Shown piece after piece: positions 4,459 through 46,212 of a stretch of DNA of 46,411 nucleotides; within the stretch, counting starts at the first letter, position 1; each line of letters opens with the position of its first letter. Source of the DNA: an uncultured Candidatus Saccharibacteria bacterium (lineage in GTDB: Bacteria; Patescibacteriota; Minisyncoccia; UBA6257). The DNA lies in assembly GCA_964513365.1 (NCBI GenBank), contig CAZEMH010000002.1, positions 1-46,411 on the forward strand. The letters run 5' to 3'. The notes beneath the pieces were generated by a model that worked only from the letters and a program-made list of their open reading frames with translations, did no database searches and was not told the origin of the DNA. The position numbers were made by a program, and so were the translations under genes.

Positions 4459-4475
4459 CAATATAAATTATTTAA

Positions 4476-4546: not shown

Positions 4547-4558
4547 CAAATCTTTTTT

Positions 4559-6220: not shown

Positions 6221-6225
6221 CTTCT

Positions 6226-6308
6226 GCCCAGGTGGCGGAACGGTTTACGCGGAGGACTTAAAATCCTTGACTCTTTAGAGTTTGTGGGTTCGAATCCCAC
6301 CCTGGGCA
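6226..6308 (+). tRNA. tRNA-Leu(TAA), type II
   Basis: Acceptor GCCCAGG/CCTGGGC, anticodon stem GAGGA/TCCTT, loop CTTAAAA, 15-nt variable arm, T arm GTGGG-TTCGAAT-CCCAC. Uninterrupted, with no intron. Confidence 0.85.
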
Positions 6309-6324
6309 CTGTAATTATAATATC

Positions 6325-7216: not shown

Positions 7217-7723
7217 TTATTCTAATATTTCCATTATTGTTTCTTTTATACCAAATTCTTCAGCTGATTTTCTGTCAGCAAACCAAATATCTACTCTTGA
7301 ATTAGTAAAACGCTCGTGCATTCTATCGTCTACTGTAAAGATTTTATCTCTGAACAGTTTAGGAAATCTTACTTTTGTTCCAAATGGTAAAAAATTAGAA
7401 GCAACAATTCCGTCATAAACCCACTCGCCAGAAGCAGTAATAAACGGAGAATCATCTGTTTGGTCAGGAGTAGAAGAATATGCTGTTACAGTAACTTTTT
7501 CTATTGTTTGAACTATAGATTGAGGAGAATTTATTGTTGTAAAGAAAGTATCATTTGAATTATAATATTTTTCATTATCATTACTAACAGCCTCTTGTTG
7601 GGAGTTGTTAATAATAGTGGATGGCGATCCTTCTACTAATAAATCTGACCAAGGACTAAATAAACTGAAGCATAAGACAGCAGAGAAAATCCCGATTTTT
7701 GTAGCTTTATTTAGAATATCCAT
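7217..7723 (-). CDS. Secreted 3D-domain protein (MltA/RlpA-like double-psi beta-barrel, cell-wall associated)
   Basis: N-terminal signal/TM segment, and a C-terminal VTAYSSTPDQTDDSPFITASG...TVDDRMHERF...VDIWF pattern typical of 3D (Asp-Asp-Asp) domains. Confidence 0.7.
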   Translation of the reverse strand: MDILNKATKIGIFSAVLCFSLFSPWSDLLVEGSPSTIINNSQQEAVSNDNEKYYNSNDTFFTTINSPQSIVQTIEKVTVTAYSSTPDQTDDSPFITASGEWVYDGIVASNFLPFGTKVRFPKLFRDKIFTVDDRMHERFTNSRVDIWFADRKSAEEFGIKETIMEILE

Positions 7724-11226: not shown

Positions 11227-12372
11227 ATGCCAGAAAATTTTTCTTTACCTTCAAATATTTCTAATGAAGATCCTGGGAAAACTCCTAATCAGCAAGAACC
11301 AGGACAAAGGTTTTCTCCTCCGCCTTCTAATGTTTTTATTAGAACATCAGAATCAGATTTAGAAAAAATTAAGTCTGAAGGAGGAGCAATTTCGGGAATG
11401 CCACCACCGCCTGCTCCTCCACCTCCTCCACCTCCTCCATCACCGCCACCTTCAGATTCTTTTGCTTATGTTCCACCTGCAGAACAAACGCCTGATACAC
11501 AGCCACAGCCAAAACCTAGCATACAACCAGAACCAGCTTTTTCTGATTCTGAACCTTCTTTTGCTCCAGAACAACCAGCAGGAATATCTGAATTTCCAGT
11601 TACTGAACCAGAATCTCCACAAAAAAATAAATTATTACCTTTTATTGTTATAGGTGTGTTGATTATAGCAGTTGTTGCATTAGGATATTTTTATCTTTGG
11701 CCTAAATTTTTTCAGGCTGGACCTGTAGTTACTACAACAACTAGTACAAGTATTCAGACAACTACTACAACCTTAGCTGCTTCACCATACCCTCAGATTA
11801 GCGGTCCATTTCAGAAATCTCTTTTTAATATAGAAATTAGTGGTCCAGATGTTGTAAAATCCATAAAAGATGAAGCTACTTCTGAATTAGCCTCTCCCGG
11901 AACTTTTAAAATTCTTGTTCCTAAGGTACATAATGATCCTCTTACAAACGAAGAAGTTGTTCTTTCTCTTGTTCCACAATTGCCAGTGAGATTAAAGCCT
12001 TATATGCTAGCTCGTAAATATTTAATTTACTCTTATTATGGCGAGGTTAATCCATCTCTTGGTTTGATTATTGACATTGGAGAAGAAAGCAAAGAGGAAG
12101 TAAAATCCATTTTCTTGGCTTGGGAAAATAGGCTTGGAATCTTAAATGATTTGAAAGAACTATTCCTTGTCGATATTCCTAAAAAAACAGCTAATGATTT
12201 TAAAGAAACTACTAATGCAGGGGCAGAAATTCGTTACTTCACTTATTCTGGAGAAGAAGCAGCCATTACCTATGCTTTCTTTGGTCAATATTTAATAATG
12301 AGTTCATCCTTAGAATCAATTAATAGCGCTATTTCTCATCTTCAGGGTACAACCGAACCAATCTATCCATAA
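11227..12372 (+). CDS. Hypothetical single-pass membrane protein with a proline-rich N-terminal region
   Basis: N-terminal about 130 aa is Pro/Ser/Glu-rich (PPPPAPPPPPPPPSPPPS), then one TM segment (LLPFIVIGVLIIAVVALGYFYLW), a Thr-rich linker and a C-terminal domain of about 200 aa with no motif I recognise. Confidence 0.6.
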   Translation: MPENFSLPSNISNEDPGKTPNQQEPGQRFSPPPSNVFIRTSESDLEKIKSEGGAISGMPPPPAPPPPPPPPSPPPSDSFAYVPPAEQTPDTQPQPKPSIQPEPAFSDSEPSFAPEQPAGISEFPVTEPESPQKNKLLPFIVIGVLIIAVVALGYFYLWPKFFQAGPVVTTTTSTSIQTTTTTLAASPYPQISGPFQKSLFNIEISGPDVVKSIKDEATSELASPGTFKILVPKVHNDPLTNEEVVLSLVPQLPVRLKPYMLARKYLIYSYYGEVNPSLGLIIDIGEESKEEVKSIFLAWENRLGILNDLKELFLVDIPKKTANDFKETTNAGAEIRYFTYSGEEAAITYAFFGQYLIMSSSLESINSAISHLQGTTEPIYP

Positions 12373-15797: not shown

Positions 15798-16731
15798 AGA
15801 GCTTCCTAAGCCAATTCGTTTAGATAAATATTTAAAGCAAGAAATTAAATATATTTCTCGTGAAAAAATTATCCATTATATCAGAGATGGGAAAATAAGA
15901 ATTGAAGGTAAAAATAAAATTAAGCCAAGTTATATTCTGAAAGGAAAAGAAAAGATTTTATTAGAAATTCCTGATTTTTCTAATTCAATTAAAAAACAAT
16001 CATTTATAAAACCTCAATTTCTTTCTCCTGAACCAAAAATTTTATATGAAGATAAAAATTTATTAATCATTAATAAGCCATCAGGCATAATTGTTCATCC
16101 TGGTATTAATAATATTGCTAATCCGTCAATTGCCGGTTGGTTTTTACAAAGATACCCTTTTGTCCTTGATGTAGGTGAGGATAAGTTAAGGCCAGGTATT
16201 GTGCATCGCTTGGATAAAGAAACATCAGGAGTGCTTATTCTTGTTAAGAATAATCTTGTTTTTAGCTATCTGAAAAATCTTTTTAAAGCAAGAAAAATTA
16301 AGAAAAAATATATTGCATTAGTAAGAGGAGAAATTAAAAAGCAGCATGGAATAATAAATTTTCCTTTAATTCGTTCTAAAAAAATACCAATAAAAAAGAA
16401 AGTTGTGATTAAGAAAGATAAAGGCAAGAATGCTTTAACAAAATACAAAGTCTTAAAACGATATCAAGGGTATACGCTTTTAGAAATTTTTCCTGAGACT
16501 GGCCGTATGCATCAAATAAGAGTGCATTTAGCAAGTATTGGATTTCCTGTAGTTGGTGACAAGATATATGGCAGATTAAAAAAACCAGGGGGATTAAATC
16601 TAACTCATCATTTTCTTCATGCTCAAGAAATTTCTTTTGTTTCTTCTGACGGGAAAGCACTTAAAATACAATCACCTTTACCAAATGATTTAAAGAAATT
16701 ATTGCAAGAATTAAAGCCTAAAATTGACTAA
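15775..16731 (+). CDS. rluD: RluA-family 23S rRNA pseudouridine synthase (RluD-like) with N-terminal S4 domain
   Basis: S4-like N-terminus (IRLDKYL...), catalytic HRLDKETSGVLIL motif, and a C-terminal GRMHQIRVHL motif. Confidence 0.85.
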   Translation: MIKTIIVKELPKPIRLDKYLKQEIKYISREKIIHYIRDGKIRIEGKNKIKPSYILKGKEKILLEIPDFSNSIKKQSFIKPQFLSPEPKILYEDKNLLIINKPSGIIVHPGINNIANPSIAGWFLQRYPFVLDVGEDKLRPGIVHRLDKETSGVLILVKNNLVFSYLKNLFKARKIKKKYIALVRGEIKKQHGIINFPLIRSKKIPIKKKVVIKKDKGKNALTKYKVLKRYQGYTLLEIFPETGRMHQIRVHLASIGFPVVGDKIYGRLKKPGGLNLTHHFLHAQEISFVSSDGKALKIQSPLPNDLKKLLQELKPKID

Positions 16732-16777
16732 AGCCATTTATCTGTGTTAAAGTGGTAATAATAGAAAAATATTAATC

Positions 16778-17104
16778 ATGACTGAATTAAAAGTAGAAGA
16801 AATAAAGCCTGGAATGTACGTCAAGATCTCTCAAAAGATTAAAGACGGCGATAAAGAAAAAACGCAACATATAGAAGGGCTTGTAATAGCAAGAAAGCAT
16901 GGTAAAGAGTTAGGCGCTACTATTACTATAAGAAGAGTAATGGATGGAGTAGGCGTGGAATGGATATTGCCAGTTTTTTCTCCGAGAATAAAAAAGATTG
17001 AATTAGTTAGAGCTGCTCGAGTAAAGAGAGCAAAATTGTATTTCCTTAGAGATAAATCTCAGAAACAAATTCGCGCTAAATTGAAAAAGGAAACTAAAAA
17101 GTAA
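16778..17104 (+). CDS. rplS: 50S ribosomal protein L19
   Basis: 108 aa; pattern G..V.I......G.KE..Q...G.VIA....G...T.T.RR...GVGVE...P..SP.I..IE typical of L19. Confidence 0.9.
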   Translation: MTELKVEEIKPGMYVKISQKIKDGDKEKTQHIEGLVIARKHGKELGATITIRRVMDGVGVEWILPVFSPRIKKIELVRAARVKRAKLYFLRDKSQKQIRAKLKKETKK

Positions 17105-17140: not shown

Positions 17141-17395
17141 ATGAAGCCACTAGGTAAAGTTAAAATTAAATGGTCACCGGATTTTGCTTACGCGATAGGA
17201 TTATTAGTAACCGATGGAAATTTATCTCCGGATAATAGGCATATTACTTTTACTTCCAGAGACCTTGAATTCATTCATAAATTTCAGAAAAGCTTGAAAA
17301 TTAATTTTCATATTGGCAGAAAATCAAGTAGTTTTGAGAGCTATAAAAAGTATCATATTGTTCAAATCGAATTTGTTTGTATAGGAAGCGAATAA
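17141..17395 (+). pseudogene. Truncated LAGLIDADG homing endonuclease (N-terminal 84 aa only)
   Basis: FAYAIGLLVTDGNLSPD is a LAGLIDADG motif. The ORF stops after 84 aa and only 47 nt remain before the next tRNA, so the rest of the fold is missing. Confidence 0.6.
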
Positions 17396-17442
17396 AAATA
17401 GAGAAAACTTTAAAAATTAATAGTAAGCAATTATTAAATTAT

Positions 17443-17526
17443 GCGCGGGTGCTGTAATTGGTAGCCAGGCCAGCCTAAGGAGCTGGTGTCCGCAAGGGCG
17501 TGGAGGTTCGAGTCCTCTCCCGCGCA
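17443..17526 (+). tRNA. tRNA-Leu(AAG), type II (A at wobble position 34)
   Basis: Acceptor GCGCGGG/CCCGCGC, anticodon stem CCAGC/GCTGG, loop CTAAGGA (U33, A34 A35 G36, G37), 15-nt variable arm with GCAA loop, T arm GGAGG-TTCGAGT-CCTCT, A73. No CCA. Confidence 0.8.
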
Positions 17527-17550
17527 CCCGGATAATTAGACACTAACTTT

Positions 17551-17586
17551 CTACCATTTGACACATGGTAGTTTTGGGTATATATT
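17551..17586 (+). promoter_or_regulatory. Hairpin after tRNA-Leu(AAG) overlapping a candidate promoter for the downstream island
   Basis: CTACCAT-TTGACAC-ATGGTAG is a 7-bp hairpin (17551-17571) followed by TTTT. TTGACA (17558-17563), 17-nt spacer, TATATT (17581-17586). Confidence 0.4.
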
Positions 17587-17633
17587 TAAAACAGGAAAGT
17601 CGAAGAAAAATAAAATAACTATTAATTATCAAT

Positions 17634-17861
17634 ATGTCTTCATTTAAAAATAGTATTGGTGCTTTTAACAAAGAACCAAGCACAAGTCGAGGTTTAAGCC
17701 AAGGAGGTGGACGAGGACGTCAGCCAGGAGGTTTTGGTTTAGGTCCTTCGGGTTTCTGTGTTTGTCCTAAGTGCGGGGAGAAAACTCCCCATCAAAGAGG
17801 AATTCCTTGCTATCAAATTAAGTGCCCGAAATGTGGTACTCAAATGACTAGAGAAAAATAA
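17634..17861 (+). CDS. Small Gly/Arg-rich protein with a 4-Cys zinc ribbon (resembles the DUF5320-type small proteins that accompany NifX-like genes)
   Basis: 75 aa; GGGRGRQPGGFGLGPSG followed by CVCPKCG-x14-CPKCG. Confidence 0.6.
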   Translation: MSSFKNSIGAFNKEPSTSRGLSQGGGRGRQPGGFGLGPSGFCVCPKCGEKTPHQRGIPCYQIKCPKCGTQMTREK

Positions 17862-17878
17862 ATTTAATAAATAAATTT

Positions 17879-18289
17879 ATGAAGATTTGTATTACTTCTT
17901 CGGATTTAAATTTAAATTCTCCAGTAGATTCACGATTTGGCAGAGCTCAATATTTTCTTATTTTAGACGAGAAGGGGAATTTAGAAGAGACCATATCAAA
18001 TCCTGGAGTTTTAGCAAGTGGAGGAGCTGGTATTGCTGCTGCTCAAAAAATTATCGATCAAGGGGTGAAAATTCTGATTACTGGAAACATTGGACCAAAT
18101 GCTCTCGGTGTTTTAGAAACAACTAATATACAAATATTTTTATGTCCCTTTAATATTAAGGTAAAAGAAGCGTTTTTAATGTGGAAAAACGATAAATTAA
18201 CCCTGATGAAAAAACCTTCTGTTCCTGGTCATTTTGGTCATGGGTCTCCAGGCGGTCGCAGAGGGTTTAATAGAAGAGGAAGAAGATAG
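17879..18289 (+). CDS. NifX/NafY-like (dinitrogenase FeMo-cofactor-binding fold, COG1433) protein with a Gly/Arg tail
   Basis: MKICITS...VDSRFGRAQYFLILD...NPG...GGAGIAAAQKIIDQGVKILITGNIGPNA matches the family pattern. The C-terminus is GSPGGRRGFNRRGRR. Confidence 0.75.
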   Translation: MKICITSSDLNLNSPVDSRFGRAQYFLILDEKGNLEETISNPGVLASGGAGIAAAQKIIDQGVKILITGNIGPNALGVLETTNIQIFLCPFNIKVKEAFLMWKNDKLTLMKKPSVPGHFGHGSPGGRRGFNRRGRR

Positions 18290-18293
18290 AAAT

Positions 18294-19532
18294 ATGGAAA
18301 GTATACTTGGAAAAGGTCAAAAAGCAGCCATAATAGCAGGATTTACTACACTTTTTTTTGCTTTGGCTAAAGGGGTAGTCGGGTTCTTTTCCGGAAGTGT
18401 GGTTCTTTTAGCTGATGCTGTTCATAGTGGAGCTGATTCTTTTTCCACTTTTTTTGCTTGGCTTGGATTAAAAATTGCCCAAAAGAAACCCACTGAAAAA
18501 TTTCCATACGGATATTATAAAGCAGAAAATATAGCTTCACTTTTAATAGCTGTTCTGATTTTGTTTGCCGGGTATGAAATTGTTAAAGAAGGTATCAATA
18601 AAATTTTTATAGAATATCAACTGAATATTCCCTTAATCGCAGTAACTGTTGCTGCTCTAGATGCTTTAGTAATGTTTTCTATAGGAAATTATGAAGTTAA
18701 GATTGGGAAAAAGATTAATTCTCAAAGCTTAATATCTGACGGAACAGAATCAAAAATGCATATATTTTCTTCCTCAATAGTTCTTGTAGGATTATTCTCT
18801 TCTTGGTTTGGAGTTCCGTACATGGAAGGAATTATGGGTATTTTGATTTCCTTCTTTATCTTTAAGGTTGGCATTGAGTCAGTTAAAGATTCTCTATTTG
18901 CTTTAATGGATGTTTCTCCAAGCAAAGAAATGGAAGAGAAAATAAAGAAAATTTTAAGAGGTATTTCTGGACTCCGAGATTTTGATAATTTAAAATTACG
19001 AAAATCGGGCCCTTTTGTCTTTGGAGAAGTTGAAATTAAAATTGGGAAAAACGTAAATATTAAGAGAGCCTCTGAAATCTCTTCTATTGTTGAAAGAGAA
19101 ATAAAAAAGAGAATTAAAACAATAGATTCATTTTTAGTTACTATCTCTTCCTATCAAACCAAAAAACAAAAACTTTGTATTCCGATAAAAGAAGGCAAAG
19201 ACCTTGATTCTAAAATATCAAATCATTTTGGGAGAGCCGAAAAATTTATCTTTATAGAATTAGAAAGCGGGAAGATTAGAAATTATTACTTAAAAGATAA
19301 CCCTTATAGAGAAAAAGAAATAAGGGCTGGCTTGGATGCTTCTCTTTTTGTAATAAAGGAGAAAATTGACTCTATTATAACCAAAGAAATGGGTCCGATA
19401 TCTTTGCATACCCTAAGAGATAACATAGTGGATGTTTATAAAGGAGAAGGGCTGAAAGTAAGAAAAATTATTGAAAACTTTTCTGCTGGTAAATTGAAAA
19501 TTTTAAAAGAAGCGACAAGAGAAAAAACTTAA
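18294..19532 (+). CDS. Cation diffusion facilitator (CDF) metal transporter fused to a C-terminal NifX-like domain
   Basis: CDF TM core (LLADAVHSGADSFST..., FPYGYYKAENI), a CDF cytoplasmic domain, then about 120 aa (nt 19170-19529) with KLCIPI...ISNHFGRAEKFIFIEL...NPY of the NifX-like pattern. I prefer the MESILGK start (ATG 18294) over ORF-track 18234, which overlaps the previous gene. Confidence 0.75.
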   Translation: MESILGKGQKAAIIAGFTTLFFALAKGVVGFFSGSVVLLADAVHSGADSFSTFFAWLGLKIAQKKPTEKFPYGYYKAENIASLLIAVLILFAGYEIVKEGINKIFIEYQLNIPLIAVTVAALDALVMFSIGNYEVKIGKKINSQSLISDGTESKMHIFSSSIVLVGLFSSWFGVPYMEGIMGILISFFIFKVGIESVKDSLFALMDVSPSKEMEEKIKKILRGISGLRDFDNLKLRKSGPFVFGEVEIKIGKNVNIKRASEISSIVEREIKKRIKTIDSFLVTISSYQTKKQKLCIPIKEGKDLDSKISNHFGRAEKFIFIELESGKIRNYYLKDNPYREKEIRAGLDASLFVIKEKIDSIITKEMGPISLHTLRDNIVDVYKGEGLKVRKIIENFSAGKLKILKEATREKT

Positions 19533-19542
19533 TTTTGAAATT

Positions 19543-20397
19543 ATGAAAAATTTGTTTCAAAAGATCCTGGATAATACTAGAAAAGCTCAAAAAATTGTTA
19601 TTACAGGAGGCAAGGGAGGAACAGGAAAATCAACAGTTGCTGTCTTAATGGCCGCTGAATTATTAAGAAAAGGGAAAAAAGTAATTCTCTGTGATTGCGA
19701 TATTGAATGCCCAAATGATTATTTACTGACGGGCCAAAAATTAAAAAAACCGGTAAAAAAAGTTTATGCTGAGTTTCCAAAATTAATTAAAAAAAAATGC
19801 ACCAAATGTGGATTATGTGTTAAAACTTGTCGGAGTAACGCTATTTTTCAAGTACCTGGTCAGTATCCAATTTTTATTAAAAACTTATGTTCTGGTTGTG
19901 GAGCTTGCTGGGCAGTTTGTCCATTTGGAGCAATTAAACCTCAAAAACAAGAAATAGGTCAAATATATTATAATAAAATCAAAAATTTAGATTTGATTAC
20001 TGGAGTAGCGAACCCAGGCATAGAAGAAACAGGGCCAGTGGTAAAAGAAGTAAAAGAATTTACTCTAAAATTTGCCAAAAAGATTAAAGCGGATATAGTT
20101 TTATTTGATACAGCAGCTGGTACTCATTGTCCAGTAATCAATGCTCTCCTCAATACTGACCTTGCTTTTGCTGTTACCGAGCCTACTCCAATGGGTGCCT
20201 ATGATTTGAATTTAGTATTGAGTTTGTGTAAAAAATTAAAAATTCCTGCTAAAATTATTTTAAACCAAGCAGATTTAGGTAAAAAACAAGAAATTAAAAA
20301 AATTGCTAAAAAATACAAAGTAAAAATTGGAAAAGAAATTTCTTATTCAAGAGAAATTGTTAAAGCTTATTATAGAGGGAAACTGTTAAATTTCTAA
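19543..20397 (+). CDS. MinD/Mrp-superfamily P-loop ATPase with inserted 2x[4Fe-4S] ferredoxin domain (COG1149 type), copy 1
   Basis: Deviant Walker A GGKGGTGKST, two cluster motifs CTKCGLCVKTC and CSGCGACWAVCP, then the remainder of the ParA/MinD fold. Confidence 0.8.
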   Translation: MKNLFQKILDNTRKAQKIVITGGKGGTGKSTVAVLMAAELLRKGKKVILCDCDIECPNDYLLTGQKLKKPVKKVYAEFPKLIKKKCTKCGLCVKTCRSNAIFQVPGQYPIFIKNLCSGCGACWAVCPFGAIKPQKQEIGQIYYNKIKNLDLITGVANPGIEETGPVVKEVKEFTLKFAKKIKADIVLFDTAAGTHCPVINALLNTDLAFAVTEPTPMGAYDLNLVLSLCKKLKIPAKIILNQADLGKKQEIKKIAKKYKVKIGKEISYSREIVKAYYRGKLLNF

Positions 20398-20400
20398 AAC

Positions 20401-21285
20401 ATGAGAAATGAAAAATTGAAATTAGTAATAGTTTCAGGTAAGGGAGGAGTAGGAAAGTCAATGCTGAGCTCGGCCTTAGCAATGCTCTTTGCAAAAGATT
20501 TCAAGGTAATAGCGGCTGATTGCGATGTTGATGCGCCTAATTTAGCTATTTGGCTAAACGAAATAGGAAATTGGGATAAAATTGAAAAAATAAGTGTTTC
20601 TGAAAAACCTGTAATTGACAACAGTAAATTAACCCAAAAAGAAGCTAAATTGTGTGTAGAAAAGTGCAAATTTAATGCCTTGGAAGTAAAAAAAGGAAAG
20701 TTAAAATTGAATCCTTTTTTATGCGAAGGATGTGGAGCTTGCGAAATTTTTTGTCCATCTGGAGCGGTAAAAATGAAGCCGGTAAAAAACGGAGAAATAA
20801 AAACAAAAAAAACAAAATACAATTTTACTTTAGTTTCCGGACAACTTTATCCGGGAGAGACAGGTTCTGGAAAGATGGTTACAAAAATTAAACAGCGAGC
20901 GGAAAAACTTAAAGGAAAATTAATGTTAATTGATTCTGCTCCAGGAACCGGTTGTCCGGTTATTGCTTCTCTTCAAGATGCAAACTTCGCTATTTTAGTA
21001 ACCGAACCGACTCCTTCTGGGTTTTCAGATTTAAAAAGAGTTTTGGAAGTAGTTAATCACTTTAAAATTTCTTGGAGATTGGTAATAAATAAATGGGATA
21101 TCAATTCTCCATTGAGTAATAAAATTGAAAAATGGGCTGGTAAAAAAATTTTAGGTAAGATATCTTACGACAAAAAGATTTTTAAAGCAATTGCCAATTT
21201 GACGCCAATTCTAGAAACCAATTTAAATGTTAAAAAAGAAATAATTCAGATTTTTAATAAATTAAAAATTAATTTTAAATGTTAA
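20401..21285 (+). CDS. MinD/Mrp-superfamily P-loop ATPase with inserted ferredoxin domain (COG1149 type), copy 2
   Basis: SGKGGVGKSM Walker A. CVEKCKFNAL (degenerate) and CEGCGACEIFCP motifs. It starts 3 nt after copy 1. Confidence 0.8.
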   Translation: MRNEKLKLVIVSGKGGVGKSMLSSALAMLFAKDFKVIAADCDVDAPNLAIWLNEIGNWDKIEKISVSEKPVIDNSKLTQKEAKLCVEKCKFNALEVKKGKLKLNPFLCEGCGACEIFCPSGAVKMKPVKNGEIKTKKTKYNFTLVSGQLYPGETGSGKMVTKIKQRAEKLKGKLMLIDSAPGTGCPVIASLQDANFAILVTEPTPSGFSDLKRVLEVVNHFKISWRLVINKWDINSPLSNKIEKWAGKKILGKISYDKKIFKAIANLTPILETNLNVKKEIIQIFNKLKINFKC

Positions 21286-21357
21286 ATTATGCCACCTTTG
21301 TGTGGTACTGCTAATGTCAGGTAGTTTTAATCAAAAACAATTTTAGTACTCATTTTA

Positions 21358-23016
21358 ATGAAAAAAGATTTCTCAATTTTAGTAGGAGGAGCAGCAGGAG
21401 AAGGATCTAGAAAAGCCGGACTTATGATAGCCAAATTATTCTCAAATCTAGGTTATAGGATTTTTATTTATGATGATTACCAATCTTTAATTAGAGGTGG
21501 TCATAGTTTTTCCCAGATTAGAGCTTCTAATAAAAAAATCTTAACTCATCGTAAAAAAATAGATTTTCTTCTGGCCCTAGATGAAACTACCATTAGAAAA
21601 CATCAGGCTGATTTAGACAAAAAAGGAGTAATTATTTATAACAGTGATAAGATCTCTATTAAGAACGAGAACGCAATAGGAATAGCCACGGAAACAATTG
21701 TTAAAAAAGCCGACGGGGTTTCTATAATGGGAAATACTGCCTTTATAGCCGGATTTGCAAAAATTATCGGTATTAATTGGAAAATCTTAGAGAAACTTTT
21801 TAAAAAAGAATTTAAAAAATCTAAAGGGGTAAACCTAAAAATAGCCAAGAAAGCCTTTAATGATACAAAAAACTTAATTAAGATTAAAAAGTTGAATCAG
21901 AAATCACTACCTGTTTTGACAGGTAATGAAGCCCTTTCTCTAGGAGCGGTTAAGGCCGGACTTGATTTTTACATTGCTTATCCCATGACTCCAGCTACTG
22001 GAATTTTACATTATTTAGCAGCTCGCAAAGAGGATTTTGGTATCGCTGTAGCTCAGTTGGAAAATGAAGTGGGTATTGTAAATGCTGCTATTGGGGCATC
22101 TTACACTGGTGCTAGGACTATGGTTGGGACTTCAGGAGGCGGATTTGCTTTAATGGTAGAAGGACTTAGTCTAGCTGCTCAAAGCGAAATACCTTTAGTA
22201 ATAGTAGAAAGCCAAAGGATGTCTCCTGCCACTGGAGTGCCAACTTATAGCGGCCAGGGCGATTTATTATTTGCCTTGACTGCTGGACATGGCGATATTT
22301 TGAGGTTTGTCATTGCTCCCGGCGACGCCGATGAGGCTTGTTTCTGGGCAGGAAAAATTTTAAATCTTTCCTGGAAATATCAAACCCCTTCTATTTTATT
22401 AATAGATAAGGAAATTTCTGAAAGCACATTTAGTTTTGATGAAAATATTTTAAATAAGATTAAATATGAAAAACCTTTAGTTTGGAATAAAGACGGGCAA
22501 TACTTAAGATATAAAGATACAAAAAATGGAATTTCTCCTCTTGCTTTTCCCGGAGAAAAAAATGTAATTTCAAAAGCAAATAGTTACGAGCATGATGAGT
22601 TTGGTATTACCGTGGAAGACGAAAAAAGCACGGAAAAAATGCAGAATAAAAGATTAAGAAAATTTAAAGAGATGAAGAAAGAGGTAAATAAGCTTGAGGC
22701 AATTAAAATTTATGGCAACAAGTATGCTAAAAAAGCAATTATTGTTTGGGGCTCAACTAAAGGACCGGCGAAGGAAGCAGCTGAAAAATTAGGAATTAAA
22801 ATGATTCAACCCATTATTCTTGAACCGTTTCCAAAAAAGCAAATGAAGGAAGCATTAAGAGGGGTTAATAAATTAATTTTGTTAGAAACAAATGCATTAG
22901 GGCAAATGGAGAAAGTCTTAAATTGTTATGGGATAAAAATTGATAGAAAGATTTTGAAATATAATGCTAAACCATTTCTTCCTGAAGAGATAGAAAAAAA
23001 ATTATCTAAATTCTAA
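21358..23016 (+). CDS. 2-oxoacid:ferredoxin oxidoreductase, fused gamma-alpha subunit
   Basis: N-terminal gamma-type domain (VGGAAGEGSRKAG...IRGGHS), then an alpha N-terminal domain (LTGNEALSLGAVKAGLDFYIAYPMTPAT). Confidence 0.85.
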   Translation: MKKDFSILVGGAAGEGSRKAGLMIAKLFSNLGYRIFIYDDYQSLIRGGHSFSQIRASNKKILTHRKKIDFLLALDETTIRKHQADLDKKGVIIYNSDKISIKNENAIGIATETIVKKADGVSIMGNTAFIAGFAKIIGINWKILEKLFKKEFKKSKGVNLKIAKKAFNDTKNLIKIKKLNQKSLPVLTGNEALSLGAVKAGLDFYIAYPMTPATGILHYLAARKEDFGIAVAQLENEVGIVNAAIGASYTGARTMVGTSGGGFALMVEGLSLAAQSEIPLVIVESQRMSPATGVPTYSGQGDLLFALTAGHGDILRFVIAPGDADEACFWAGKILNLSWKYQTPSILLIDKEISESTFSFDENILNKIKYEKPLVWNKDGQYLRYKDTKNGISPLAFPGEKNVISKANSYEHDEFGITVEDEKSTEKMQNKRLRKFKEMKKEVNKLEAIKIYGNKYAKKAIIVWGSTKGPAKEAAEKLGIKMIQPIILEPFPKKQMKEALRGVNKLILLETNALGQMEKVLNCYGIKIDRKILKYNAKPFLPEEIEKKLSKF

Positions 23017-23022
23017 TATTTT

Positions 23023-23868
23023 ATGGTTAAAAAGAACATAAATCTAGATACTTATGCTAAAAACACCTGGTGTCCTGGTTGTGGTAATTTTGGGATTTTA
23101 GCTGCTTTAAAAATGGCGATTTCTTCTTTATTGACAAGCGGATTACCTAAAGAAAATATAGTGGTTGTAAGTGGAATAGGCTGTAGCTCAAAAATTATTG
23201 ATTATCTCAACCTAAATAGTTTTTCTTCTTTACACGGAAGGCCAATTACTTCAGCTGAAGGAATAAAATTAGGAAATCCAAATCTTAAAGTTATTGTCTG
23301 TGCCGGAGACGGTGGGACCTATAACGAAGGGATTTCTCATTTAATTCATGCTGCCAAAAGAAATATTGATATTACAGTTTTAATTCACAATAACAGGAAT
23401 TTTGCTTTAACTACCGGTCAATTCACCGCTACTTCCCCAGAGGGGTTTAAAGGAAAATCTACTCCCGAAGGAAGCATGGAAGAACAATTTGATCCCATAA
23501 AAATAATGTTAGCCTCCAAAGCTACTTTTATAGCTCGGGGGTATTCTGCTAAAGCAGAACATCTGAAAAATTTAATTTTGAAAGGAGTTAACCATAGAGG
23601 ATTCTCTTTTATTGATATTTTACAACCTTGTGTTTCATTTTTTGATACATATAAGTTTTATAATGAACGGGTTTTTGAAATGAAATCTGAAAATTTAACA
23701 TCAGAGAAAGAAGCTCTGAAAAAAATTAATCAATGGGGATACGGACAGAAAGGAATGAAAATTCCCATTGGTATATTTTATAAAATCCAAAAACCAACTT
23801 ATGAAAAACGATTACTAAAAGGCCTGATTCCTTCAAGAAGAAAGAAGAAGATTAAGGTAACTATCTAA
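23023..23868 (+). CDS. 2-oxoacid:ferredoxin oxidoreductase, beta (TPP-binding) subunit
   Basis: WCPGCGNFGIL and GDGG...NN..FALTTGQ TPP/Fe-S motifs. Confidence 0.85.
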   Translation: MVKKNINLDTYAKNTWCPGCGNFGILAALKMAISSLLTSGLPKENIVVVSGIGCSSKIIDYLNLNSFSSLHGRPITSAEGIKLGNPNLKVIVCAGDGGTYNEGISHLIHAAKRNIDITVLIHNNRNFALTTGQFTATSPEGFKGKSTPEGSMEEQFDPIKIMLASKATFIARGYSAKAEHLKNLILKGVNHRGFSFIDILQPCVSFFDTYKFYNERVFEMKSENLTSEKEALKKINQWGYGQKGMKIPIGIFYKIQKPTYEKRLLKGLIPSRRKKKIKVTI

Positions 23869-23911
23869 CGCATAACTTAAATTAAACATACTATAAAAAT
23901 AAAATATAATT

Positions 23912-24190
23912 ATGTATAAAATAAATAAACAAAAGTGTACTGGTTGTCAAATTTGTGTTCGGAGTTGCCCCGGAGCGACCAAGATAGGAACCGATGGCAA
24001 AGCAGAGGTTATTAGTCAAGAAAAGCTTGAGCAATGTGGTGGAGAAAATCTTTGTCCAATGGGGGCAATAGAAAAAGATGGATCATTTTCTTATCAATCC
24101 CCATTATCTAAAGGAAAAGGATTAGGCAAAGGGAGAGGTCCAGGTAGGGCTAAAGGAATGGGAAGAAAAAGACGAGGAGTAAGAGGTTAA
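23912..24190 (+). CDS. Small ferredoxin with a C-terminal Gly/Arg/Lys tail
   Basis: CTGCQICVRSCP full motif plus a distal C-x5-CP (CGGENLCP), which suggests a single cluster. The tail is GKGLGKGRGPGRAKGMGRKRRGVRG. Confidence 0.7.
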   Translation: MYKINKQKCTGCQICVRSCPGATKIGTDGKAEVISQEKLEQCGGENLCPMGAIEKDGSFSYQSPLSKGKGLGKGRGPGRAKGMGRKRRGVRG

Positions 24191-24274: not shown

Positions 24275-25273
24275 ATGTTTTTTTCAGAATCTAATCAAAC
24301 TATTAAAGCAGTAAGAGCAGCTACACCTTCGGTGGTAGCTGTTTTAATGTCTAAAGAGTTGTCAAAAATTAAAAAAGAAATTGGAGCAGATGTAGCAAGG
24401 TATTTAGTTGATGAAAAAGGCATGGTTAAAATAGGTGGATGCTCGGGTTTTTTTGTTTCATCTGATGGTTATATTCTAACAAATCGCCACATTGTTGAAG
24501 ATGAAGAAGCCTCTTACACTGTGGTTTGGCAGAATAAAACTTATTCATGCAAGATTTTAGTCAGGGATAAAATAACTGATATTGCCATTTTAAAGATTGA
24601 TGGTGATAATTTTCCATATTTAAAATTCACTGATTCTTCTCAATTAAAATTAGGCCAGACTGTTATTGCTATTGGTAATGCATTAGGTGAATTTCAAAAT
24701 ACTGTTTCACGAGGGATTATTTCAGGACTCTCACGAGATATAAAAACAGAAATTGGAGAAAATATTCAAGAATTTTTTGGTTTAATTCAAACAGATGCCG
24801 CTATTAATCCTGGAAATTCTGGTGGACCTTTAATTAATCTCTCAGGAAAGGTTATAGGAATTTGTACGGCAGTAGTTTTAGGTGTAGAAAATATTGGTTT
24901 TGCTATTCCTATTAATCAGGCTGAAAGTATTTTGGAAGATATAAGAAAATATGGAAAGATATGTCGTCCAAGTTTGGGAGTAAGATATTTTTTAATTAAT
25001 GAAGAAATGCAAAAACTTCATCATTTTCCTTTTGATTATGGTGCTTTTATTATTTATGAGACAATTCCTGGGCGCGGAGGAATTATTCCTAAAGGACCAG
25101 CAGAAAAGGCTGGCTTAAAAGAAGGAGATATTATATTAGAAATCAACAAAAAGAAAGTAACTAAACAATCTAATTTGTCTCAAGTTTTGGCTTGTTATAA
25201 AATCGGTGATGTAATTAATATCACTTATTGGAGCAAAGGAGAGAAAAAACACATAGATGTTAAGCTTGAATAA
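24275..25273 (+). CDS. htrA: HtrA/DegP-family serine protease with one PDZ domain
   Basis: Catalytic triad contexts ILTNRHIV, DIAILKI and GNSGGPLINLSGKVIGI. A C-terminal PDZ (GLKEGDIILEINKK). Confidence 0.85.
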   Translation: MFFSESNQTIKAVRAATPSVVAVLMSKELSKIKKEIGADVARYLVDEKGMVKIGGCSGFFVSSDGYILTNRHIVEDEEASYTVVWQNKTYSCKILVRDKITDIAILKIDGDNFPYLKFTDSSQLKLGQTVIAIGNALGEFQNTVSRGIISGLSRDIKTEIGENIQEFFGLIQTDAAINPGNSGGPLINLSGKVIGICTAVVLGVENIGFAIPINQAESILEDIRKYGKICRPSLGVRYFLINEEMQKLHHFPFDYGAFIIYETIPGRGGIIPKGPAEKAGLKEGDIILEINKKKVTKQSNLSQVLACYKIGDVINITYWSKGEKKHIDVKLE

Positions 25274-25279
25274 TCTGGT

Positions 25280-27430
25280 TTATTCTTTGTGAATTTTTTG
25301 AGAAAATTCTTGAAAGTTGGCCAACAACAAAGGCCATTTTTTTAATGTTGAATCTTTTTTAAGAAGCTCTTTTGCCTGTTCGTGAACTTTTTCTATGAAT
25401 TCTTTGTTTAAAAGAGAACTCATTACTAAATCAGGAATTCCTGATTGTTTGGTTCCTAAAAACTGTCCAGGGCCTCTTAAAGAAAGATCCATTTCTGCGA
25501 GATGAAATCCGTCATTACATTTAACCAATGTTTTTAAACGATTTGTAATAGCGCTATGTGATGACTCAGAAAACAAGAAACAATAAGATTGATAGTGGGC
25601 TCTCCCTATTCTTCCTCTAAATTGATGTAATTGCGCTAGGCCAAAATGTTCTGATCCTTCAATTATCATTAAAGAGGCATTTGGAATATCAACACCTACT
25701 TCAATTACAGAAGTAGAAACTAAAAGGTTAATTCTATTTTCCTGAAAATTCTTCATTGCTATTTCTTTTTCTTTTGGTTTCATTTTCCCATGTAACATAG
25801 CAATCTTTAAGTCGGGAAAAATCTCTTTGGTTAATTTTTCATATTCTTTTTTAACTGCTTTAACCTCATGATTTAAACGTTCTGATAAAGTAAGAAGATT
25901 ATCACTTTTAATATCAGAGGTTTCTGTTTCTTCAATCCTTGGACAAATCACAAATGCTTGCCTTCCTTTTTTTATTTCTTTTCGGATAAAATTATAAACT
26001 TTTTTCCTGTCTTTTGGGAGGACAACCTTGGTAATTATTTTTTTTCTTCCTTTTGGCAGTTCATCTAATATGGAAAGATCTAAGTCTCCGTAAAAAGCTA
26101 GAGCTAGAGTACGGGGAATAGGCGTGGCAGTCATTGATAAAAGATGAGGAATTTCTTTTTTATTTGCGTTTTTGGCAATAAGTTTTTTTCTTTGTTCTAC
26201 GCCAAAACGATGTTGTTCATCAACAATAATTAATCCCAGGGAATTAAAGCGAATATTTTTTTGAATAAGAGCATGAGTACCAATTACGAGAATGGGATCT
26301 GAAGAAGTAATAATTTTGTTTAATGCTTGCTTGGAAATTTTACCTTCTAATCCATTGTCGTAAATTTTTGTTGTTGAAGATGTTAAAAGAGCAATTTTTA
26401 CTTGAAATGGTTTGAGGGCATCTTTGAATTTATCAAAATGTTGTTTTGCTAATATTTCTGTTGGGGCCATTACTGCTACTTGGTAGTTTGATTTGACGGT
26501 TAATAAGCTTGCGGCAATGGCTACAATAGTTTTTCCAGATCCTACTTCTCCTTCTAAAAGACGATTCATTGGCCTTTGATGAAGATTATTAGCAATATCC
26601 CATATTGTTTTTCTTTGGCATTCAGTAAAAGGGAATGATAATGACTGTGTAAATGATTGAAGTAAAGGAATATCCAAATTGATTTTTGGGGCATTTAAAA
26701 GAGTATTTTTCCTTTTTCTTTTCAGAAGATAAATTTGAGAAAGCAACAAAGATTCAAAAACAAATCTTTGTTTTGCTTTTTTTGCTAATAGCAAAGATGA
26801 CGGAAAATGAATTTGGTTGAGTGATTGTTGAAGGCTTATTAATTTATGTTTTTTTAGTATGAAATCGGGAAGTGTATCTTTTATACCATAAGTTAATTTT
26901 AAAAGTGGTTTAATAAAATAACGCAACGCTCTGGAACTTAATCCTTTTGTTTCTGAATACACAGGAATTAAACGGCCAGTATGCTTAAGCTCTTCATAAA
27001 ATTCTTCTTCTGCTTTTTGCCTGGAGATAATTTCATATGATGGGCTAGAAAGGATTAATTTTTTTCCTCTTTTTTTTACTTTTCCCGATAAAGAAAGAAC
27101 TGCTCCTAATGGTATGTTTTTTAATAAGTAAATTTGATTAAACCAAATTGCAATTATCTGGCCTGTATTATCTTCAATTATAGCTTCAATAATAAATATT
27201 TTCTTTTTGTATGTTCTTCTGACATTAATTTTTTTTACGCTTCCCATTATTGAGCATTTTTCTTCTGGCTGCAGTTCATTTATTTTTTTAATTTTGGAAA
27301 AATCTTCATAACGAAAAGGAAAATACCAAAGTAAATCTTTTATTGTTTTAATTCCTAATTTTTCCAAGTATTTTAAATAACGCGGACCAATACCACGTAT
27401 TTCTGAAACAGGGTTGGAGAGTTTAATCAT
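25280..27430 (-). CDS. recG: ATP-dependent DNA helicase RecG
   Basis: Wedge/OB N-terminal domain, helicase motifs GEVGSGKT, DEQHRFGV and MTATPIPRT, and a C-terminal TRG-like region. The ORF-track N-terminus (to 27583) reads through a tRNA, so I start at MIKLSNPVSEIRG (ATG 27430-27428). Confidence 0.9.
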   Translation of the reverse strand: MIKLSNPVSEIRGIGPRYLKYLEKLGIKTIKDLLWYFPFRYEDFSKIKKINELQPEEKCSIMGSVKKINVRRTYKKKIFIIEAIIEDNTGQIIAIWFNQIYLLKNIPLGAVLSLSGKVKKRGKKLILSSPSYEIISRQKAEEEFYEELKHTGRLIPVYSETKGLSSRALRYFIKPLLKLTYGIKDTLPDFILKKHKLISLQQSLNQIHFPSSLLLAKKAKQRFVFESLLLSQIYLLKRKRKNTLLNAPKINLDIPLLQSFTQSLSFPFTECQRKTIWDIANNLHQRPMNRLLEGEVGSGKTIVAIAASLLTVKSNYQVAVMAPTEILAKQHFDKFKDALKPFQVKIALLTSSTTKIYDNGLEGKISKQALNKIITSSDPILVIGTHALIQKNIRFNSLGLIIVDEQHRFGVEQRKKLIAKNANKKEIPHLLSMTATPIPRTLALAFYGDLDLSILDELPKGRKKIITKVVLPKDRKKVYNFIRKEIKKGRQAFVICPRIEETETSDIKSDNLLTLSERLNHEVKAVKKEYEKLTKEIFPDLKIAMLHGKMKPKEKEIAMKNFQENRINLLVSTSVIEVGVDIPNASLMIIEGSEHFGLAQLHQFRGRIGRAHYQSYCFLFSESSHSAITNRLKTLVKCNDGFHLAEMDLSLRGPGQFLGTKQSGIPDLVMSSLLNKEFIEKVHEQAKELLKKDSTLKKWPLLLANFQEFSQKIHKE

Positions 27431-27432
27431 AG

Positions 27433-27504
27433 TGCCCCTGGGAAGAATCGAACTTCCATCACAGACTCCGCAAGTCTGTATTTTATCCGTTAAACTACGG
27501 GGGC
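27433..27504 (-). tRNA. tRNA-Arg(GCG)
   Basis: Acceptor GCCCCCG/CAGGGGC (C6-A67 mismatch), D arm GTTT-AACGGATA-AAAT, anticodon stem CAGAC/GTCTG, loop TTGCGGA, T arm GGAAG-TTCGATT-CTTCC, A73. No CCA. Confidence 0.75.
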
Positions 27505-27583
27505 TTGCTTTAAAATTATCATGAAATATGTATTTTTTCAAGGTGTTTTTTAATATTTTTCTTTTGTGATATGATAAAATCAA

Positions 27584-45970: not shown

Positions 45971-45997
45971 TGATTATTTAATTTTTTAAAGTTTATG

Positions 45998-46204: not shown

Positions 46205-46212
46205 AAATAATG

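Follow-up and report, generated by a model that had tools for sequence, protein, structure and literature searches.

Eight open reading frames, all on the plus strand, follow one another from 17634 to 24190 in the window, by which we mean the whole stretch of 46,411 nucleotides that was analysed. The ORF check found them at the coordinates given in the first-pass annotation, with intergenic gaps of 17, 4, 10, 3, 72, 6 and 43 nt when p3 is started at the ATG at 18294, a start that fits the N-termini of 14 homologues. In near-identical contigs, gene callers put the p3 start upstream, overlapping the preceding gene. Except for details of p1, the ORF and domain searches agree with the genes, gaps and domains that had been described, and the expected profile matches (PF02579; CbiA/ParA with Fer4; PF01545/PF16916; the POR families) were all obtained.

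A tRNA-Leu(aag) gene at 17442–17529 lies just before a segment (17551–17586, plus strand, motif scan) in which a hairpin (17551–17571, then a T-run) overlaps a sigma-70-like match, TTGACA-17-TATATT, at 17558–17586. The latter had been put forward as a candidate promoter. It agrees with the consensus at 11 of 12 positions and is the top match in the 8.7 kb scanned, but promoter-like sites in that sequence number 34 against 29.8 ± 4.5 in shuffles, no excess, and the ~65-bp segment with the motif is absent from the close relative L086, whose cluster proteins are 85–97% identical.

p1 (17634–17861, plus strand), a metal-binding-type Cys6-His protein of 75 aa, was characterised by conservation, an AF2 model and profile searches. 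Its N-terminus is disordered and Gly/Arg-rich and its C-terminus is a Cys6-His knuckle domain, formed with C42, C44, C47, H53, C59, C64 and C67. It had been called a Cys4 zinc-ribbon; the alignment instead gives six Cys, invariant in bacterial and archaeal homologues, plus one His. No Pfam or NCBIfam model was found for the domain (zinc-ribbon matches were all sub-threshold), and PF17253, which had been expected, gave no match at E ≤ 0.01 and has precomputed matches in only 4 of 85 homologues. In the AF2 model residues 41–75 have a pLDDT of 83–90 (10-residue block means) and look like a zinc-ribbon or rubredoxin knuckle, with no significant match in the PDB. The domain family comprises 553 clusters at E ≤ 1e-10; among its top 150 representatives, 18 carry the domain in one polypeptide with NifX-fold domains and one carries it fused to a rhodanese domain.

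p2 (17879–18289, plus strand, 136 aa) matches PF02579 (1.4e-17 in the profile search) and joins a globular NifX-fold part of pI 6.2 to a cationic Gly/Arg tail of 28 aa and pI 12 (GHFGHGSPGGRRGFNRRGRR). Most of 69 neighbouring p2 orthologues bear Gly/Arg(+Phe/Trp) tails of the same kind, 14–56 aa long, and related Gly/Arg tracts occur on DUF5320 neighbours (GRGWGRGW repeats) and some ferredoxins; in the window, cationic tracts are confined to p1, p2 and p8. Gly/Arg tracts also bind nucleic acids. The Cys of the HFGxC position, present in 48 of 70 family members, is absent from p2. Among solved structures MTH1175 comes closest to p2 (1.7e-18), and the orange protein (ORP) of D. gigas matches at 8.8e-11.

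p3 (18294–19532, plus strand, 412 aa) joins a CDF transporter to a NifX-fold domain in one chain. It consists of a transmembrane domain (PF01545, 8e-44), a cytoplasmic dimerisation domain (PF16916, 6e-12) and a tail-less C-terminal NifX-fold domain (PF02579, 1.5e-13, aa 305–397), and scores 208 bits against TIGR01297 (cut-off 82). This three-domain architecture is kept in all of the best 120 of 823 homologues, and fusion transporters of this type are found in Patescibacteria, DPANN and methanogens. The candidate transport-site residues H44, D48, E152 and H156 are invariant. Set beside YiiP/FieF, MamB and MamM, p3 has the full CDF architecture, dimerisation domain included, and its site positions align (with D47, D51, H155 and D159 of YiiP), but the quartet is H-D/E-H in place of D-D/H-D and the NifX-fold domain is additional; the quartet fits no characterised CDF specificity class. 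The CDF part scores best, sub-threshold, against MamB and MamM models (143 and 133 bits), with FieF next (104). The TM2 motif LLADAVHSxAD is common to p3 and magnetosome-cluster CDFs, at an overall identity of just 19–24%. Characterised CDF transporters export metal out of the cytoplasm.

p4 (19543–20397, 284 aa) and p5 (20401–21285, 294 aa), ATPases 1 and 2, both on the plus strand, are paralogues of 37% identity, each with a CbiA/ParA P-loop and Fer4 inserts. p4 is a P-loop ATPase of the MinD/Mrp type (GKGGTGKS). It carries a 2x[4Fe-4S] ferredoxin domain as an insert, with eight Cys that are invariant in the family alignment, and has two more conserved Cys, C56 and C196, in its ATPase fold. 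In p5 the ATPase fold has conserved C41 and C185, and the second Fe-S motif is intact; the first is degenerate in this genome, with L77 and A82 replacing two Cys that 40 of 57 family members keep. Homologues of p4 number 3664, the best 120 listed being 66–97% identical, mostly about 70%. The p4 AF2 model (pLDDT 81.6) resembles MinD, FleN, ATPase-type HypB, ApbC, BchL and NifH in fold; we found no solved structure of its architecture, a P-loop ATPase with an inserted ferredoxin domain. With Mrp/NBP35/ApbC and ATPase-type HypB/CooC the pair shares the SIMIBI P-loop fold, the deviant Walker A motif GKGGxGKS/T and conserved switch-region Cys, but it lacks the C-terminal CxxC and has a complete ferredoxin domain inserted instead.

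Downstream on the plus strand lie the gamma-alpha fusion subunit of a 2-oxoacid:ferredoxin oxidoreductase (OFOR), p6 (21358–23016; POR, POR_N and PFOR_II; 548 bits against TIGR03710, cut-off 483), the OFOR beta subunit, p7 (23023–23868; TPP_enzyme_C and PFO_beta_C; 286 bits against TIGR02177, cut-off 262), and p8 (23912–24190; Fer4), a 92-aa ferredoxin with six conserved Cys that is likely the electron acceptor of the OFOR. p8 ends in a cationic Gly/Arg/Lys tail (residues 59–92, pI 12), a type found in 4 of 13 sequences (the window and 12 orthologues).

For synteny 80 related genomes were compared, with adjacency counted in species-representative genomes that have the fusion transporter. Beside it are found the NifX gene (58 of 68), ATPase 1 (50 of 60), ATPase 2 (33 of 43) and p1 (at least 36 of 59), which bears out the earlier remark that NifX-fold proteins, COG1149-type ATPases and small Gly-rich proteins recur together. 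The five-gene core, p1–p5 (17634–21285), recurs in Patescibacteria, DPANN archaea and Methanosarcina, with the identical set present in Methanosarcina barkeri; the idea of a conserved metal/Fe-S module thus holds across Bacteria and Archaea, and the synteny may in part reflect shared ancestry, not independent retention. In many relatives a DUF5320 protein and a DUF134 putative regulator join the core.

The OFOR and ferredoxin had been taken for probable clients of the module. They adjoin it in just 4 and 9 of 43 loci, respectively, and the OFOR is missing beside it in the nearest species-level relatives, L085 (82% identity) and L005 (74%). We read them as Fe-S-dependent metabolic neighbours in or beside a variable slot and outside the machine. 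Most occupants of this slot, which lies between the two ATPases, are uracil-DNA glycosylases (UDGs) with four conserved Cys, as in the family-4 UDGs that contain Fe-S, along with thioredoxins, metal transporters (ABC-3 and ZIP), ferredoxin and OFOR; glutamate and isocitrate dehydrogenases also occur in it.

The closest known relatives of the core are the Desulfovibrio ORP complex and IssA, a protein of iron-sulfur storage in Pyrococcus; neither parallel appears in the first-pass annotation. In the former, two ferredoxin-insert MinD-type ATPases and a NifX-fold protein (Orp3-Orp4-Orp8) co-purify and accept Fe-S clusters in vitro, passed to them by MrpORP (PMC6345978). The complex has been tied to cell division, and the cluster bound by the orange protein is of the Mo-Cu and not the Fe-S type (PMC6345978, PMC8359166). 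The neighbourhood had been said to have no assigned function: its ATPase/NifX pair is in fact that of a complex studied biochemically, while the role of ORP is still called ‘still unclear’ by its authors (PMC6345978, PMC8359166). Common to both systems are two paralogous MinD-type ATPases with [4Fe-4S] ferredoxin motifs beside a single-domain NifX-fold protein, a further protein ending in a C-terminal NifX-fold domain, and confinement to anaerobes. That second NifX-fold domain sits on an Mrp/NBP35 ATPase in the ORP complex but here on the CDF transporter (NF041136 at most 47.5 bits, cut-off 450); the window also differs in its Cys6-His protein and Gly/Arg tails, and no sigma-54 activator was found in it.

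With IssA of Pyrococcus furiosus and the ‘IssX’ clade, p2 shares the NifX fold (IPR003731/PF02579) and an unstructured, high-pI Gly/Arg tail with aromatics. The tail, 70 aa in IssA, is kept in character and not in sequence, and p2 may be termed IssA/‘IssX’-like by its domain and tail. IssA is not known to act together with ATPases, a Cys6-His partner or a CDF transporter. The defining description of IssA/‘IssX’ fits Gly/Arg-tailed NifX-fold proteins, and the IssA authors assigned MTH1175 to the IssA clade (PMC5524996).

In magnetosome clusters where a MamB/MamM-type CDF is followed by an FmpB-like PDZ-NifX protein, CDF, NifX-fold and Cys6-His domains stand side by side as they do here, the Cys6-His signature CxCxxC-5-H-5-C-4-CxxC is common with p1, and the loci serve iron mineral formation. 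Three large proteins joining the p1 domain to NifX-fold domains were examined, and each has a CDF gene as its neighbour within a magnetosome cluster that includes MamI, LemA, trypsin and PDZ (MreB-like in one, FeoA in another). This link of the Cys6-His domain to NifX-fold/CDF magnetosome loci is new. There the domains are strung in PDZ proteins of 600–1500 aa and the CDF is separate; MamI, MamQ and MamK are all missing from the window. FmpB (PDZ and NifX) influences magnetosome number (PMC4287615). The PF02579 fold family also includes the nitrogenase cofactor-precursor carriers NifX, NafY and the C-terminal domain of NifB, but p2 and p3 are nearer MTH1175-type proteins, and nifHDK, nifEN and nifB were not found, in line with the earlier statement: none of the 30 other ORFs of ≥90 aa in the 46-kb window, nor one 84-aa ORF scanned with them, was identified as a nif, suf or isc gene.

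Iron and Fe-S material are most likely what the core stores, moves or gets rid of. To a narrower reading, in which the core is a buffer and transfer point for iron or iron-sulfide/Fe-S species at the cytoplasmic membrane face of strict anaerobes, we give about an even chance. This narrower reading is favoured because the synteny spans Bacteria and Archaea, the tails are IssA-like and the ORP complex offers a parallel; because p1-domain::NifX fusions adjoin CDFs in iron-biomineralisation loci; because the best-scoring models for the CDF part of p3, MamB and MamM, are iron transporters; and because the slot families are mostly thematic. Added to these are the rise of IssA homologues of M. voltae on pyrite (PMC8516115) and the standing of PF02579 as a strong marker of anaerobes (PMC13386939). 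Counting against this reading are the H-D-E-H quartet outside every known class, the low identity to magnetosome CDFs, the missing HFGxC Cys of p2 and the affinity of Gly/Arg tracts for nucleic acids, as well as the Mo-Cu ligand and cell-division link of ORP.

The first-pass annotation had proposed a self-contained system of Fe-S carriage and ATP-dependent insertion, with OFOR and ferredoxin as its probable clients, perhaps replacing or supplementing SUF/ISC in a minimal genome. All eight proteins are Fe-S- or metal-related, the slot often holds likely Fe-S proteins (four-Cys UDG, OFOR, ferredoxin), and the window has yielded no suf, isc or nif gene. MrpORP passes clusters to Orp3/4/8 and IssA reconstitutes ferredoxin, both in vitro (PMC6345978, PMC5524996); by the title of one paper, Methanosarcina acetivorans, whose genus carries the module, can do without minimal SUF. 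Yet a 46-kb window is too small to show absence of SUF, and the proposal looks unlikely with no sulfur donor (no cysteine desulfurase) or U-type, A-type or SufB-type scaffold in the cluster, with known CDFs exporting metal, with so few OFOR-adjoining loci, and with presumed non-Fe-S proteins in the slot too (both dehydrogenases, thioredoxins). We are equally doubtful of a homeostasis or metallochaperone operon for divalent metals (Zn, Mn, Co, Ni), in which a NifX-fold sensor would control CDF export and the ATPases would be insertion NTPases of the HypB/CooC/UreG kind. An ANME-2a paper takes this neighbourhood to serve nickel uptake and an F430 shuttle (PMC12622379). The slot repeatedly holds ZIP and ABC-3 transporters, zinc and cadmium pumps are among the solved CDF relatives of p3, and the p4 model resembles ATPase-type HypB and ApbC besides MinD, but the ferredoxin inserts have eight invariant Cys and the top-scoring CDF models are iron transporters. 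To our knowledge Patescibacteria have no methyl-coenzyme M reductase, and an F430 role therefore cannot be general. NifX-fold domains are known for binding Fe-S-based cofactors, not simple ions (PMC5524996).

A MinD-like positioning or cell-division system, as for Desulfovibrio ORP, with the ATPases placing a protein assembly at pole or septum, strikes us as quite improbable: what constantly accompanies the ATPases is a metal transporter plus NifX-fold proteins, and no linked MinC, MinE or FtsZ genes were found in the loci scanned. The ATPase fold is nearest MinD, FleN and FlhG, and ORP proteins have been proposed for cell division, with MrpORP polar (PMC6345978, PMC3897727), a role about which the ORP authors are themselves unsure (PMC8359166). 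Hardly probable at all is the handling of Mo, W or Cu thiometallate clusters, for example for detoxification or storage in sulfidic habitats, on the model of the S2MoS2CuS2MoS2 cluster of Orp8-type proteins (PMC6345978). p2 does match the D. gigas orange protein, but is nearer MTH1175, and neither the window nor the 25 commonest slot families gave molybdate transporter or molybdopterin genes. Molybdoenzymes are, as far as we know, few in Patescibacteria.

If the core does buffer iron and Fe-S species, the globular domain of p2 would bind an anionic Fe-S species and the cationic tail would wrap it, compare IssA with thioferrate, while p1, with its similar Gly/Arg stretch, may be a partner or adaptor docking on NifX-fold domains. 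p4 and p5 would pair as a nucleotide-dependent (hetero)dimer, as SIMIBI ATPases do in general, and their [4Fe-4S] inserts, together with the two further conserved Cys, could use ATP to load, unload or reduce the bound species. p3 would then export Fe(II) in excess, or a divalent metal akin to it, and the NifX-fold domain at its C-terminus would act as sensor or as hand-over point from the stored pool to the pore.

The eight plus-strand genes at 17634-24190 are present and co-directional as the first-pass annotation gave them, with intergenic gaps of 17, 4, 10, 3, 72, 6 and 43 nt given a transporter start at ATG 18294, which agrees with the N-termini of homologues. They encode a 75-aa Cys6-His protein (p1), a 136-aa NifX-fold protein (p2), a 412-aa CDF transporter fused to a NifX-fold domain (p3, CDF::NifX), two MinD-type ATPases (p4, ATPase 1; p5, ATPase 2), the gamma-alpha and beta subunits of a 2-oxoacid:ferredoxin oxidoreductase (OFOR; p6, p7) and a ferredoxin (p8). 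Pfam and NCBIfam upheld every earlier domain call. The cluster is thus a real observation, and the interpretation attached to it is partly supported. Named homologues of its proteins carry the labels Wolfebacteria, Portnoybacteria, Parcubacteria or Patescibacteria.

Homologues of CDF::NifX are detectable in 823 cases, and all of the best 120 have the same three-domain architecture. A one-genome-per-species scan with p3 gave 137 relatives, of which 80 loci were kept; these cover Patescibacteria, DPANN archaea (Woese-, Aenigmat-, Parv-, Iain-, Micr- and Nanoarchaeota), Methanomassiliicoccales, Bathyarchaeota and Methanosarcina. The eight window proteins and three proteins known from relatives were mapped onto the loci, and adjacency was counted over assessable loci, with distance and side set for each gene. 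A free NifX-fold gene lies within 1.5 kb upstream of the p3 homologue in 58 of 68 loci, ATPase 1 within 2.5 kb downstream in 50 of 60 and ATPase 2 within 9 kb in 33 of 43; a p1-family gene is nearby in at least 36 of 59. OFOR and ferredoxin are nearby in only 4/43 and 9/43, so that the conserved unit is p1-p5 (17634-21285). OFOR and ferredoxin are accessory neighbours of this unit and were rejected as core members.

The usual gene order is DUF134, DUF5320, p1, NifX, CDF::NifX, ATPase 1, then after a space (the slot) ATPase 2 and DUF134. No DUF134, separate DUF5320 or uracil-DNA glycosylase (UDG) gene was found in the window, whose own arrangement recurs only in two loci (L087 and L088) from essentially the same organism. 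The ATPase 1 homologues listed, several of which carry the label Parcubacteria, mostly share about 70% identity; identity of CDF::NifX between bacteria and archaea is 34-47%, and the five-gene core is also found in Methanosarcina barkeri. Judged from these sequence comparisons, the module is real, strongly conserved and under strong constraint. In many relatives a gene for a putative DNA-binding protein, DUF134, lies beside the module (e.g. 16512-16787 in locus L001). About 15 of 40 copies are extended at the C-terminus by a six-cysteine stretch, a possible sensor of metal or redox state.

Co-directional genes, 108 in all, occupy the slot in 34 of the 52 loci having both ATPases. By family they include UDG (24), thioredoxin (9), ABC-type metal transport (5) and ABC-3 (4), with three genes each for ZIP, thioredoxin-reductase-like, CMD, OFOR and ferredoxin families. 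The UDG has four conserved cysteines, presumably like those of the Fe-S-containing family-4 enzymes, and lies between the ATPase genes in 24 of the 34 occupied slots (loci L005-L084). A UDG gene lies within 9 kb in 20/28 bacterial-type loci, versus only 1/15 archaeal-type loci. In the window, p6 and p7 form a two-subunit OFOR, as had been proposed (TIGR03710, 547.7 against a cut-off of 482.75; TIGR02177, 286.3 against 261.9), and p8 is confirmed as a ferredoxin.

The central protein, p3, was correctly described as a CDF transporter with a dimerisation domain and a NifX-fold domain. CDF membership is clear (TIGR01297, 208.2 bits against a cut-off of 82.35; PF01545 and PF16916 also match), and p3 aligns with YiiP/FieF, the transport-site positions H44, D48, E152 and H156 being invariant in the family. 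Its CDF part scores highest with the MamB and MamM models (142.7 and 133 bits), and the TM2 motif LLADAVHSxAD is common to p3 and the CDFs of magnetosome clusters, at an overall identity of only 19-24%. Assignment of p3 as MamB/MamM was nevertheless rejected, the scores being below the cut-off of 350 and magnetosome gene context being absent; no MamI, LemA or MamK-like gene was found in the window.

The smallest member, p1, had been taken for a Cys4 zinc ribbon of the DUF5320 type. It has instead six invariant cysteines and one histidine, and does not match DUF5320 (PF17253) at E <= 0.01, a precomputed match existing for 4 of 85 homologues; true DUF5320 is a separate neighbouring gene in relatives. 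The predicted model is confident over residues 41-75 only, a zinc-ribbon/rubredoxin-like knuckle, and a fold search with it returned only non-significant zinc-ribbon/rubredoxin-like matches (E > 0.3). A p1-family profile was searched against 1.84 billion representative proteins and found 553 clusters at E <= 1e-10, most with 60-110 residues. Among 200 instances of the domain, 170 show the signature CxCxxC-5-H-5-C-4-CxxC, and our literature search found no paper describing the domain. Among the best 150 representatives, 23 exceed 300 residues and have two to five domain copies, and in 18 the domain alternates in arrays with NifX-fold domains along one polypeptide. PDZ domains occur in 7 of the 10 Cys6-His and NifX fusion proteins scanned with Pfam. 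Other fusions include one with rhodanese, one with trypsin and PDZ, and small NifX-p1 fusions.

All three large fusion proteins for which context was retrieved are encoded in metagenomic magnetosome gene clusters (L089-L091), beside a CDF gene. They are 600-1430 aa long and combine PDZ (in one, rhodanese) with alternating NifX-fold and Cys6-His domains. A MamB-like CDF gene immediately precedes the fusion gene in two clusters and precedes it at one gene's remove in the third; a trypsin-like protease gene lies directly 3' of it in all three. The clusters contain MamI, CDF, LemA (MamQ-type), trypsin, PDZ proteins, an MreB-like gene and FeoA, with two CDF copies in two clusters and one in the short third contig. 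In Desulfovibrio magneticus, the PDZ and NifX protein FmpB is required for normal magnetic particle number (PMC4287615). This unexpected domain-level link to magnetosome loci suggests that iron handling at CDF transporters relies on a shared protein toolkit. P0333 fuses Cys6-His to trypsin/PDZ and MamE-like proteases flank magnetosome proteins, and for this reason the HtrA-like trypsin-PDZ gene downstream of the cluster (24275-25273) was considered as a partner of the module; it was rejected, with HtrA nearby in only 1 of 84 loci.

The free NifX-fold protein p2 matches PF02579 at 1.4e-17. Among solved structures it is closest to MTH1175 (1.7e-18), followed by TM1290 and by the orange protein of D. 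gigas (2wfb, 8.8e-11). The globular domain has a pI of 6.2, and the 28-residue tail (residues 109-136; GHFGHGSPGGRRGFNRRGRR) a pI of 12, with 25% Gly and 29% Arg+Lys. Gly/Arg tails, 14-56 residues long and frequently containing Phe or Trp, are found in most of 69 neighbouring p2 orthologues, bacterial and archaeal. Similar tracts occur at the p1 N-terminus and in 4 of 13 ferredoxins, including p8, while DUF5320 neighbours have GRGWGRGW repeats and one invariant Cys. Among 39 scanned window genes, unstructured Gly/Arg tracts are restricted to p1, p2 and p8, three other matches being incidental.

Both p4 and p5 (20401-21285) are CbiA/ParA-type ATPases with Fer4 inserts, as expected, and are 37% identical to each other. 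p4 has a deviant Walker A motif and all eight of the invariant ferredoxin cysteines. In p5, L77 and A82 replace first-motif cysteines kept in 40 of 57 family members, so one of its two [4Fe-4S] sites is probably lost. Outside the insert the only conserved cysteines are C56 (after switch I) and C196 (in GTHCP) of p4, and C41 and C185 in comparable places of p5. C196 is seven residues past the Walker B Asp, which we take to be the spacing of the NifH cluster ligand Cys132 after Asp125. Unlike Mrp/NBP35/ApbC proteins, which have a CxxC after switch II bridging a cluster in their dimer, p4 and p5 lack a CxxC pair. Our search found no solved structure with the p4-type architecture, a ferredoxin-insert ATPase.

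Two known systems resemble the module. The first is the Desulfovibrio ORP system: by domain make-up, the paralogous pair p4/p5 matches the MinD-type ATPases Orp3/Orp4, which have two [4Fe-4S] ferredoxin motifs apiece, and p2 the single-domain NifX-fold orange protein Orp8. In D. vulgaris, an Orp3-Orp4-Orp8 sub-complex co-purifies and takes Fe-S clusters from MrpORP, in which an ATPase is joined to a NifX-fold domain (PMC6345978). No MrpORP is found among the eight proteins here, however (best NF041136 score 47.5 bits, against a cut-off of 450), and the second NifX fold is on the CDF transporter rather than on an Mrp/NBP35 ATPase. The ORP operons are divergent and sigma-54/OrpR-dependent, whereas the genes here are co-directional; Pfam scans of window genes found no sigma-54 activator domain. 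The second is the IssA/IssX family of iron-sulfur storage proteins, with which p2 shares the IPR003731/PF02579 globular domain and an unstructured, cationic, Gly-rich C-terminal tail with aromatic residues and high pI. Thioferrate binding and nanoparticle formation also characterise that family. MTH1175 has been assigned to the IssA clade, and the uncharacterised mesophilic relatives called 'IssX' are matched here too (PMC5524996). In Methanococcus voltae, levels of two IssA homologues are raised on pyrite (PMC8516115), and NifX/CbiA genes of Archaeoglobus show high constitutive expression (PMC3949148). What sets the module apart from the ORP and IssA systems is its CDF::NifX fusion, together with its Cys6-His partner. 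It also differs from the NifX/NafY carriers of nitrogenase cofactor, which sit with nifHDK, nifEN or nifB: as first noted, none of these is among the scanned window genes, and they are also absent from the gene tables of five inspected loci (L001-L004, L085). We found no paper on the CDF::NifX fusion or on the module in Patescibacteria or DPANN; the neighbourhood is noted only in an ANME-2a annotation study, with speculative nickel uptake and F430 shuttling (PMC12622379).

From composition, conservation, synteny and fusions, which are observed, we give an even chance to the reading that the module buffers iron or iron-sulfide/Fe-S species at the membrane. The NifX-fold proteins would bind anionic species, stabilised by the cationic tails, and the Cys6-His protein would partner the NifX fold, the step for which the recurrent fusions give the strongest support. 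The two ATPases may dimerise in a nucleotide-dependent way and, as a dimer, load, unload or reduce the species, and the CDF would export surplus metal, its fused NifX-fold domain perhaps serving as sensor or hand-over site. The first-pass annotation had proposed a self-contained Fe-S insertion system, whose clients would be OFOR and ferredoxin. These two neighbours occur in few loci, and the closest relatives, L085 (82% identity) and L005 (74%), have no OFOR beside the module; we regard that system as unlikely. A general divalent-metal homeostasis or metallochaperone operon seems to us equally unlikely.

The AlphaFold model of p4 (pLDDT 81.6) resembles MinD, FleN, FlhG, ATPase-type HypB, ApbC, BchL and NifH; we consider a MinD-like positioning system very improbable. 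p2 is like orange protein, which carries a Mo-Cu cluster, and closer to MTH1175, and handling of thiomolybdate or copper clusters is the least probable of these alternatives. A bolder reading we hold only as a long shot: Patescibacteria, DPANN and some methanogens may have in common a so far undescribed system that makes and mobilises an intracellular iron-sulfide store (thioferrate-like or FeS nanoparticle), from the magnetotactic MamB-associated toolkit of CDF, NifX fold and Cys6-His. In genomes lacking SUF/ISC, such a store might allow Fe-S proteins to be supplied directly with Fe(II) and sulfide from the environment. The module bears on the uptake, storage and distribution of iron and sulfur in strict anaerobes with very small genomes. 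M. barkeri has the same five-gene core and is therefore a cultured organism in which the hypothesis can be tested; genetic tools exist for Methanosarcina species.

Upstream of p1, the promoter proposed earlier is the best match in its region, although such sites are no commoner than in shuffled sequence. About 65 bp (about 17549-17613), with a hairpin, a T-run and TTGACA/TATATT, are present here and missing from L086, a relative with cluster proteins 85-97% identical to those of the window. The segment looks like an inserted terminator-plus-promoter unit. A conserved promoter was dropped as a candidate, the motif sitting in this indel and the site count being at shuffled level. A mobile or horizontally acquired island has no support either: GC stays uniform at 0.29-0.36, housekeeping genes flank the cluster, and L086 and L088 have the same flanks.

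The window as a whole is about 31% G+C and has housekeeping genes throughout. An Rfam search of it returned tRNAs and no other RNA family; the 15 tRNA genes in 46 kb are partly in small clusters (4385-4643, 6149-6309 and 45997-46283). A free-standing LAGLIDADG endonuclease gene (6325-7083, +) adjoins tRNA-Cys and tRNA-Leu(taa). An 84-aa ORF (17141-17395, +) between rplS (L19) and tRNA-Leu(aag) has a LAGLIDADG-like motif and no Pfam match; L086 has no room for it, since its L19-p1 interval is only 137 bp. Two further ORFs, of 381 aa (11227-12372, +) and 168 aa (7217-7723, -), have no Pfam match at E <= 1e-5. Translation initiation factor IF-2 (4655-6133, +) is only 492 aa long, presumably much shorter than that of E. 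coli. The RecG ORF (25280-27583, -) in its long version runs at the 5' end through tRNA-Arg(gcg) (27432-27504, -), and the wedge domain starts at residue 61 of this long ORF; translation probably begins instead at the ATG at 27430 (MIKLSNPV...), immediately downstream of the tRNA gene.
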